NCBI GenBank assembly: GCA_964577555.1
Contig: CAZNZM010000005.1
Coordinates: 47,693 to 70,084, forward strand
From: an uncultured archaeon
Lineage (GTDB): Archaea > Iainarchaeota > Iainarchaeia > Iainarchaeales > Iainarchaeaceae
Direction of reading: 5' to 3'
DNA length: 22,392 nt
How positions within the stretch are numbered: the first letter of the stretch is position 1; every line of letters begins with the position of its first letter. Both the position numbers and the translations under genes were made by a program. The notes under the pieces were generated by a model. It searched no databases. It saw only the letters and a list, made by a program, of their open reading frames with translations, and was not told where the DNA came from. This document shows positions 15,165 to 15,563 of this stretch, piece by piece.

Positions 15165-15563
15165 AAATTTTTGTTTTTTTCCAAAATTTTTTTAATTTAA
15201 AATTCAAATTTATTTTTTTTGTCTTGGCGTTTTTTGAATAATGTTTTTTTTGCGAGCCGTTTTTTTTGGCATTTTTTTTGTTAGACATTTTTTTTTGATA
15301 TTTTGTTTTTTTTTGGCGAGCCGAGTTTTTTTTTGTTTTGTGTTTTTTTGATTAGTCGGGTTTCTTTTTTTTTGTTTTTTTTTGGCGAGCTATTTTTTTT
15401 GTGTTTTTTTTTGCGGGGCGATTTTTTTTGTCATTTTTCTTTTTTTTTGGCATTTTTTTTTGTCAAAGTTGTTTTTTTTTTGCGAGCCGTTTTTTTGTTT
15501 TGGTTTTGTGAGCCTTTTTTTGGCAAATTTTTATTTTTTTTAAGTTGTTTTTTTTGGCGATTT
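15165..15563 (+). repeat. Oligo(dT)-tract / GC-island spacer (most regular copy)
   Basis: About 20 consecutive units of T7-T10 followed by a short island. GCGAGCC is exact at 15252, 15316 and 15482. Degenerate versions are GGCGAGCT at 15384, GCGGGGCG at 15413, GTGAGCC at 15508 and GGCGA at 15556. GGCA occurs at 15268, 15449 and 15522. T-run start-to-start spacing is mostly 16-20 bp by my count. Confidence 0.7.

Follow-up and report, generated by a model that had tools for sequence, protein, structure and literature searches.

What occupies the 399 bp between hisS and an archaeosortase-like gene in this stretch of archaeal DNA? The window, by which we mean the whole 22.4-kb stretch that was analysed, is taken out of a 24,036-bp metagenome contig. 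The spacer, at 15165-15563 and here called array e, is an array of T7-T10 tracts on the plus strand separated by short islands, and at least five such arrays lie on the 24-kb contig, occupying at least four spacers besides this one. The arrays are polarised, degenerate minisatellites with a conserved and oriented word; they turn over by insertion and deletion of units, and they stand at the ends of an inversion. The explanation that we favour for array e, to which we would give an even chance, is that of a lineage-specific, strand-polarised, degenerate minisatellite whose orientation has been filtered by selection. Since the closest relatives of the RtcB and histidyl-tRNA synthetase (HisRS) proteins are found in Iainarchaeum/Diapherotrites metagenome-assembled genomes, the host is a DPANN archaeon of the Iainarchaeia (Diapherotrites). 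In the literature that was searched, no earlier account of such arrays turned up, either for DPANN or for any other archaea. The spacer and its flanks contain the following features.

15165-15563, minus strand: array e, filling the gap from hisS to the archaeosortase-like gene; the minus (sense) strand is A-rich, with 22 T runs of at least 7 on the plus strand
About 15213-15563, minus strand: body of array e; 15165-15212 together with 15121-15164 is the promoter-proximal part
15252-15258, minus strand: core word GGCTCGC (GCGAGCC on the plus strand), with A runs on both flanks
15316-15322, minus strand: core word GGCTCGC in the context A9-CTC-GGCTCGC-C-A9
15482-15488, minus strand: core word GGCTCGC in the context A7-C-GGCTCGC-A10
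15564-16820, minus strand: hisS, encoding HisRS (Pfam tRNA-synt_His), the upstream flank
14556-15164, minus strand: exosortase/archaeosortase-family gene encoding a membrane protein, the downstream flank; the public call is 187 aa with its start at 15120

The sequence and coordinates of the T7-T10 array are as the initial annotation described them. The gap of 399 bp follows from those coordinates, and becomes about 444 bp if the public start of the downstream gene is taken; the description of that gene as archaeosortase-like is supported by a match to TIGR04178, which scores 36.4 bits where the cut-off is 23. The plus strand of array e is 63% T and 12% A. It is nearly devoid of A runs, as had been noticed, having none of 5 or more and just two A4, both at the promoter-proximal end (15183 and 15199). 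The 22 T runs of at least 7 compare with 5.9 ± 1.8 in mononucleotide shuffles and 13.4 ± 1.9 in dinucleotide-preserving shuffles, of which 1000 gave a maximum of 20. Run lengths are bimodal, at 1-2 and 7-10 with a mode of 8-9 and none above 10, whereas shuffled sequence gives a geometric tail extending beyond 20. The spacing of mostly 16-20 bp (range 10-25) that had been counted by hand does not describe the array well: start-to-start distances between T runs of at least 5 extend from 6 to 26 bp with a median of 16, in one broad peak. Fourier analysis of the spacing gives peaks at 16, 19 and 33 bp, with no signal at 10-11 bp (10.5 bp). Curved DNA formed by phased A-tracts was rejected, given this lack of a 10-11-bp periodicity.

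In the manner of a minisatellite, array e repeats units of 10-100 bp head to tail. Between 15292 and 15556 Tandem Repeats Finder detects a period of 35 bp in 4.8 copies (71% matches) and one of 94 bp in 1.9 copies (76% matches), and its result for 1860-2034 is similar. The spacer is 100% identical across four independent assemblies from four samples; it is thus real, and is not the assembly artefact that had been named as a possible refutation.

How stable is such a structure in evolution? We compared the window with two relatives, R1 (contigs L123 and L128, belonging to the same 90% cluster) and R2 (L116, L117 and L124, with 92% HisRS identity), whose proteins are about 85-92% identical to those of the window. 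Both have arrays in the same spacers as the window genome and with the same polarity. Alignment of a window array with its homologues nevertheless fails past the stop codon, though identity in the neighbouring coding DNA is about 90%. The lengths differ greatly, the hisS spacer being 399-444 bp in the window and 621 bp in the relatives, and the spacers at RtcB or the 390-aa gene 458 and 572-741 bp respectively. Between archease and RtcB, 443 bp in the window correspond to only about 161 bp in R1 and R2, where the array is weak. With such a range (161-741 bp) in the relatives, the similar size of the arrays in the window, about 400-460 bp, is a coincidence. The arrays of R1 and R2 can be aligned with each other, and differ by blocks of 37 and about 50 bp, each carrying one GGCTCGC, as well as by small changes of run length. 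Even two samples with identical HisRS have arrays that differ by a 5-bp indel. Whole units therefore change in copy number between relatives, as expected of a minisatellite, and the earlier suggestion of an expansion-prone slippage product is directly supported by homologous arrays that cannot be aligned, with length shifts of hundreds of bp and gain or loss of whole 37-50-bp units. A single dispersed element of about 400 bp copied among loci was rejected; the arrays share a grammar and short words and not a colinear sequence. By eye, the last 110 bp or so before the archaeosortase-family gene look conserved with R1 while the array body is unalignable, and TATA-like AT palindromes lie in this promoter-proximal stretch.

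A comparable array was found in none of 80 RtcB loci from other species, sampled at one genome per species and including about eight Iainarchaeia (77-80% identity) together with AT-rich Woesearchaeota and Nanoarchaeota. The sole array-like match among them, in L072, proved to be a lysine/glutamate-rich coding region and was discarded. Nor is there an array after hisS in a relative whose HisRS is 78% identical (L118). At 1395-1600 of L118 hisS is followed by three tandem units of about 60 bp (…CATTTTGCATTCTTTTTCTTTTTA…GAGGTTTT), beyond which lies a tRNA; the sense strand of the units is rich in T, and they are thus a different repeat of opposite polarity. The array-bearing genomes have 34-38% GC, compared with 41-52% in other members of the group. 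Because units turn over between R1 and R2 and distant genomes have none, the arrays are a young, lineage-restricted and fast-turnover minisatellite of the most AT-rich members of the group. That they vary in length and are missing from sister lineages speaks against any precise requirement for them, and we think that they are not a finely specified element.

The internal grammar was analysed by pooling nine arrays of the three genomes. On the A-rich strand these contain 190 A runs of at least 6, about one per 16 bp, with 42 runs of length 6, 63 of 7, 54 of 8, 28 of 9 and three of 10. The base preceding an A run is C in 71% of cases against a background of 36%, and G is depleted on either side. 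The sub-unit, read on this strand, is an A run of 7-10 followed by an island of 1-12 nt. Sub-units cluster into units of about 35-50 bp with one GGCTCGC each, placed between A runs in the usual order of A run, C or CTC, GGCTCGC, an optional C, and A run.

This word is the second defining feature of the arrays. Its plus-strand form GCGAGCC was reported at 15252, 15316, 15482, 122 and 1851, and all five exact copies were found; each is within a T-rich spacer, and a sixth is on the minus strand at 5101. Six copies in the whole window compare with 0.73 expected, and six was reached in none of 100 shuffles. When twelve stretches of array (5,055 bp in all) were counted, GGCTCGC was present 19 times on the A-rich and twice on the T-rich strand, compared with seven times in 54 kb outside. 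It is thus about 30-fold denser in the arrays, amid DNA of about 25% GC, and is their commonest GC-rich 7-mer. Single-mismatch variants fall at the CpG in 13 of 15 cases (GGCTTGC 8, GGCTCAC 5, others 2), examples of the word and its variants in the window lying at 15252, 15384 and 15508; positions 1-4 and 7 are nearly invariant. This CpG-centred variation fits either CpG hypermutability, possibly with methylation, accompanied by replacement through duplication of units, or a motif whose centre is tolerant. The CpG-specific decay hints at cytosine methylation in the lineage.

The word is common to the three genomes while the sequence around it turns over; it is both over-represented and kept as its flanks change, as would be found in an array of protein-binding sites. 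The arrays might then be clusters of sites at which a protein recognises the word, as GGCTCGC or GGCTYRC, in A-tract DNA or A-rich RNA. Candidates are a regulator peculiar to the lineage, a protein of the nucleoid or of partition, or a DNA methyltransferase that modifies the CpG. The density, orientation (19:2) and rank of the word, its survival in three genomes, the near fixity of all positions except the CpG, and the single word carried by each whole-unit indel all agree with this. However, CpG hypermutability with rapid duplication of intact units yields the pattern of variants equally well, many units lack the word, and the word is not palindromic, unlike many DNA-binding sites. We regard such a binding array as distinctly unlikely. 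A scan of metagenome contigs for A7-N(1-4)-GGCTCGC-M-A7 gave 27 loci with one match each, none of them an array; L110 and L112 among these look like chance or lysine-rich coding DNA, and it seems that the collection does not include the source population. A similar scan of viral contigs gave one match.

How are the arrays disposed with respect to genes? Besides array e, those in the window are as follows.

1-169, minus strand: array b (partial), separating RtcB from the pilin-like 390-aa gene in a spacer that measures 458 bp in full (L005 11456-11913), with GGCTCGC at 122-128
1625-2067, minus strand: array c, in the archease/RtcB spacer; 19 T runs of at least 7 on the plus strand and one GGCTCGC, at 1851-1857
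4547-4966, plus strand: array d, between the divergent bPH gene and 329/349-aa gene; A-rich on the plus strand, with shorter runs (A5-8)
22194-22392, minus strand: array f, weak, downstream of a pilus-type operon; GGCTTGC and A7 on the minus strand

A further array is present at the contig end, beyond the pilin-like 390-aa gene. Array d has the same grammar as the others in the opposite absolute orientation. Array f is T-rich on the sense strand of the pilus operon, and matches in position and polarity an array of at least 612 bp at the end of an R1 contig. Spacers of 32, 99 and 100 bp carry no array. The convergent spacer at 6017-6115 contains ordinary T8 and T7 signals, one on each strand, which suggests that the organism uses oligo-T terminators.

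Wherever an array lies between tandem genes, it is the sense strand that is A-rich. The two neighbours of array e, hisS and the archaeosortase-like gene, are on the minus strand while its T runs are on the plus strand, and T runs of 4 or more do not appear on the sense strand until about 70 bp before the next gene. This bears directly on the proposal of stacked unidirectional oligo-T terminators. As a matter of sequence in any direction the tracts are there, 22 of T7-10 on the plus strand, and the one-way polarity stands; termination of the flanking genes does not, both genes being on the minus strand with A-rich RNA. The T runs are antisense to both genes and so cannot terminate them, and no oligo-T terminator of at least five T was found on their sense strand after the stop codon. 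That the T runs are ordinary intrinsic terminators, stacked to serve hisS and its neighbour, is scarcely credible to us. Oligo-T is the archaeal terminator signal and the arrays start right after stop codons; yet the Pfam assignments place both genes on the minus strand, their transcripts read A runs with no sense-strand T run of at least 4 before the last 70 bp or so, and arrays b and c present the same contradiction.

The RNA transcribed in the sense direction is untranslated, with 17% C and 8% G, and unstructured (minimum free energy -16.4 kcal/mol over 364 nt, z = +1.5). It lacks U-tracts, whereas the antisense RNA of the arrays would hold 20-33 tracts of U7-10. Archaeal RNA polymerase with aCPSF1/FttA stops at U-tracts. 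In model archaea termination efficacy and the binding of aCPSF1, which is reported to bind U-tracts, rise with their number (PMC8716108), and prokaryotic promoters are often bidirectional (PMC10268837). With these properties of the two RNAs, the scaling of termination with tract number and the bidirectionality of promoters, we infer that each array would be a one-way gate, which lets sense transcription through and stops transcription that is antisense or divergent.

The mechanism that we propose would then run as follows. Arrays gain and lose whole units, with small changes of run length, as replication slippage or unequal recombination would produce, and the GGCTCGC word decays chiefly at its CpG to GGCTTGC and GGCTCAC. 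Sense RNA from the upstream gene, being A/C-rich, unstructured and free of U-tracts, would pass through the array freely, while antisense or divergent transcription would meet 20-30 consecutive U7-10 tracts, a very strong barrier. The arrays would be mostly self-propagating low-complexity DNA, and selection would filter their orientation: in front of a gene that is transcribed by read-through or from a start just downstream only the A-rich-sense orientation would be tolerated, because the reverse would have polar effects on that gene. Arrays of opposite orientation could recombine, inverting the block of genes between them.

Just such an inversion separates the window from its relatives. The gene order in the window is 390-aa gene (minus), RtcB to bPH166 (minus), 329-aa gene (plus) and giant gene (minus), whereas in R1 and R2, combining overlapping contigs, it is 389-aa gene (minus), bPH166 to RtcB (plus), 363-aa gene (plus) and giant gene (minus). 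The inverted block is bPH166-bPH-archease-RtcB (window 1-4966 compared with L124 and L128). Homology is clear for the 390-aa protein (85%), bPH166 (86%) and the 329/363-aa protein (60%), and the giant protein shares its C-terminus. The breakpoints fall within two oppositely oriented arrays, b (1-169 and beyond) and d (4547-4966). We infer that these served as the recombination substrate, because oppositely oriented arrays bound the inverted block, as recombination between inverted repeats predicts. The genes outside the block each keep an upstream array with the A-rich strand on their sense side; array polarity thus stays with the downstream gene across the inversion.

Could the arrays have been selected as such? 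They might be transcription insulators enforcing promoter direction, on the premise that AT-rich archaeal promoters fire both ways; stacks of T runs just upstream of each promoter would kill divergent or antisense transcripts before these reach the neighbouring gene, with array size and turnover mirroring selection on the bulk number of tracts and not drift. Whether the genes are tandem or divergent, the T runs are always antisense to the downstream one, and across the inversion too; the symmetric TATA-like AT palindromes lie solely at the promoter-proximal end of the arrays, and an A run of at least 7 is found immediately upstream of putative TATA sequences. Three genomes bear arrays in the same spacers, and the 32-, 99- and 100-bp spacers never do. 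The dependence of termination on U-tract number (PMC8716108) and the bidirectionality of promoters (PMC10268837) fit as well. Yet one to three tracts would suffice where 20-33 are present, the archease-RtcB array is a remnant of about 161 bp in the relatives without obvious consequence, sister lineages live without arrays, and the GGCTCGC word is left unexplained. We consider that selected insulators are unlikely, though worth keeping in view. Much the same low expectation attaches to a fuller version, a dedicated promoter-direction or insulator element whose GGCTCGC is bound or modified by a lineage-specific factor and which doubles as a recombination substrate reshuffling gene order. Its role would be that played in eukaryotes by early termination of upstream antisense transcripts.

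A number of observations weigh against the polarised minisatellite with filtered orientation. Array f and the R1 contig-end array of at least 612 bp are T-rich on the sense strand of the preceding operon, where they would act as ordinary terminators; on account of these two, the orientation rule rests on few independent sites, about four tandem and two divergent contexts. All the arrays of the window but one share one absolute strand, and a polarity linked to replication is possible, judged on 24 kb. The one-way gate itself is deduced solely from the DNA sequence and from model archaea. The peak of run length at 7-9 with a hard cap at 10 suggests constraint, and the excess of C before A runs (71% over a 36% background) suggests constraint beyond slippage. 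A word of 86% GC, moreover, survives in DNA of about 25% GC in three genomes. Lastly, 20-30 terminators exceed the need of one insulator, which favours passive expansion and leaves any benefit of the arrays unproven.

A third explanation looks to chromatin. Open, nucleosome-depleted regions upstream of promoters are known in yeast, Plasmodium and Haloferax. The A-tracts might in the same way be rigid poly(dA:dT) linkers that exclude histones or nucleoid proteins and keep the region upstream of promoters open, the polarity being a by-product of tandem duplication. Promoters do have dense A7-10 tracts directly upstream, and such tracts flank open reading frames (ORFs); the density of poly(dA:dT) is high (190 runs of at least 6 in nine arrays). 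With no 10.5-bp phasing the DNA would be straight and stiff and not curved, and sequence directs archaeal nucleosome positioning. In Plasmodium homopolymer tracts flanking ORFs coincide with nucleosome-depleted regions (PMC4194402). However, exclusion needs neither a polarity relative to genes, nor a cap at 10, nor a GC-rich word, and relatives manage without arrays; we therefore think it quite improbable.

Other classes of element fare worse. The initial annotation could not match the spacer to CRISPR, REP/MITE-like elements, ORB-type origins or riboswitches, and all four exclusions were upheld by our tests. The repeat families are of low complexity, at 63-80% identity, with no exact repeat/spacer pattern of the CRISPR kind. 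The array body has no inverted repeats such as those of REP/BIME or MITE elements, AT palindromes being present at the promoter end only, and the folding z-scores were +1.5 and -0.2. The features of an origin are missing, with no dyad repeats, no orc1/cdc6 among the window genes and at least five arrays in 24 kb. At the gathering threshold Rfam gives only tRNA-His (in the window, L123, L124 and L128). A lysine-rich protein was rejected, since stops interrupt all the frames and there is no conservation, and a structured RNA for want of an Rfam match or a fold signal. Transcription-coupled deamination of cytosine in the non-template strand predicts a T-rich, C-poor sense strand; the opposite is seen, and this origin of the asymmetry was also rejected. 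Taken as one residual explanation, lysine-rich coding sequence, structured non-coding RNA, CRISPR, REP/MITE, a replication origin or an assembly artefact can point to the lysine-rich ORFs of 31, 64 and 140 aa that public callers place in the arrays, and to the contigs that often break in them. Against it are stops in all three minus-strand frames and ORFs that are not conserved, an empty Rfam search with folding no better than that of shuffles, the lack both of exact repeats with unique spacers and of inverted repeats in the array body, the number of arrays without orc1/cdc6 among the annotated window genes, and four identical assemblies. We consider it very improbable.

The polarised minisatellite has no exact counterpart among known systems, of which the nearest are archaeal U-tract terminators, the eukaryotic organisation of intergenic poly(dA:dT), and prokaryotic minisatellites. 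Like the terminators that act with aCPSF1/FttA, the arrays contain tracts (T7-10) that equal or exceed the length needed to stop archaeal RNA polymerase, and ordinary T7/T8 signals are found in the convergent spacer of the window. As in stacked archaeal terminators many tracts lie in a row, where efficacy grows with number (PMC8716108). Unlike them, the array tracts are antisense to both flanking genes, number 20-33 over 400-740 bp with an interleaved conserved GC-rich word, and belong to an element that recurs at several spacers with minisatellite-like turnover. The arrays share with the poly(dA:dT) of Plasmodium, Dictyostelium and the nucleosome-depleted regions of yeast over-long A/T homopolymers that are intergenic and flank ORFs or promoters, as well as a placement that depends on strand with respect to genes and patterns that are particular to a lineage (PMC4194402). 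In contrast, the arrays belong to an archaeon whose genome is compact, and the tracts are capped at 10 bp, quasi-regular at about 16 bp, confined to one strand and accompanied by a recurrent GC-rich word. Prokaryotic minisatellites, or variable-number tandem repeats, have in common with the arrays degenerate tandem units (here 35 and 94 bp), whole-unit indels, rapid change of length and broken assemblies. The arrays differ from them in being very degenerate, with 63% of one base, and in that the same grammar and word recur at many loci, consistently oriented with respect to the genes. REP/BIME, ERIC and MITE elements are likewise short, dispersed, intergenic and able to promote rearrangements, but the arrays are non-palindromic, have no terminal inverted repeats or discrete boundaries, and are not single copies.

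There is also some similarity to rut-like tracts, where untranslated, unstructured RNA with more C than G allows a termination factor to load on the nascent chain. The sense RNA of the arrays is untranslated and unstructured with about twice as much C as G, but it is A-rich and not C-rich, and to our knowledge archaea have no Rho. In archaea aCPSF1 is reported to bind U-tracts (PMC8716108), which the sense RNA lacks.

If the arrays were true one-way barriers, they would provide a natural directional insulation made only from the archaeal oligo-T signal, and an insight into how AT-rich archaea curb spurious and divergent transcription. About 8% of the 24-kb stretch is fast-evolving, strand-polarised DNA of low complexity; DPANN genomes are thought to be streamlined. 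The arrays break up short-read assemblies of the lineage. Contigs of several independent assemblies stop in or just past arrays (L007, L008, L116, L117, L120-L123 and L128). Together with the placing of arrays at inversion ends, the fragmentation of metagenome assemblies matters for binning and for the evolution of gene order in uncultured archaea. The public gene calls inside arrays, of 31, 64, 39, 50 and 140 aa (L001 6923-7355; L123 8443-8865; L005 6831-6983 and 9641-9760), are lysine-rich and without conservation. They are probably spurious, since the A-rich strand is poor in T and hence in stop codons.

The genes around the arrays offer some further observations. The window encodes RtcB, archease, HisRS, tRNA-His, an archaeal pilus-type ATPase and a 2,779-aa protein; a 70-kb contig at NCBI encodes RtcB, HisRS and 390-aa proteins identical to those found here. 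The tRNA-His gene (anticodon GTG, 16843-16917) precedes hisS by about 20 bp and shares its strand, so that the tRNA adjoins its synthetase, and the same arrangement is found in R1 (L123 6927-6999). On the other side of array e the giant 2,779-aa protein (6116-14455), with faint matches to Big_1, bMG3 and CarboxypepD_reg, follows directly after the archaeosortase-family gene across the 100-bp spacer without an array, and the two may be a sortase-substrate pair. The unannotated 329/349-aa protein (4967-6016; L124 4828-5919) is only 60% identical between the window and R2, compared with 85-92% for its neighbours, and its gene, which adjoins an array, is fast-evolving. The convergent spacer between this gene and the giant gene contains a small hairpin that is apparently conserved (window 6030-6062; L124 5933-5957; L123 about 17960-18000). 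Its sequence is CAGCCTGG-TTAAAAT-CCGGCTG in the window and CAGCCAG-TTAAAAT-CTGGCTG in the relatives, and by our reading of the alignment one pair of the stem is altered on both sides, from G:C to A:T.

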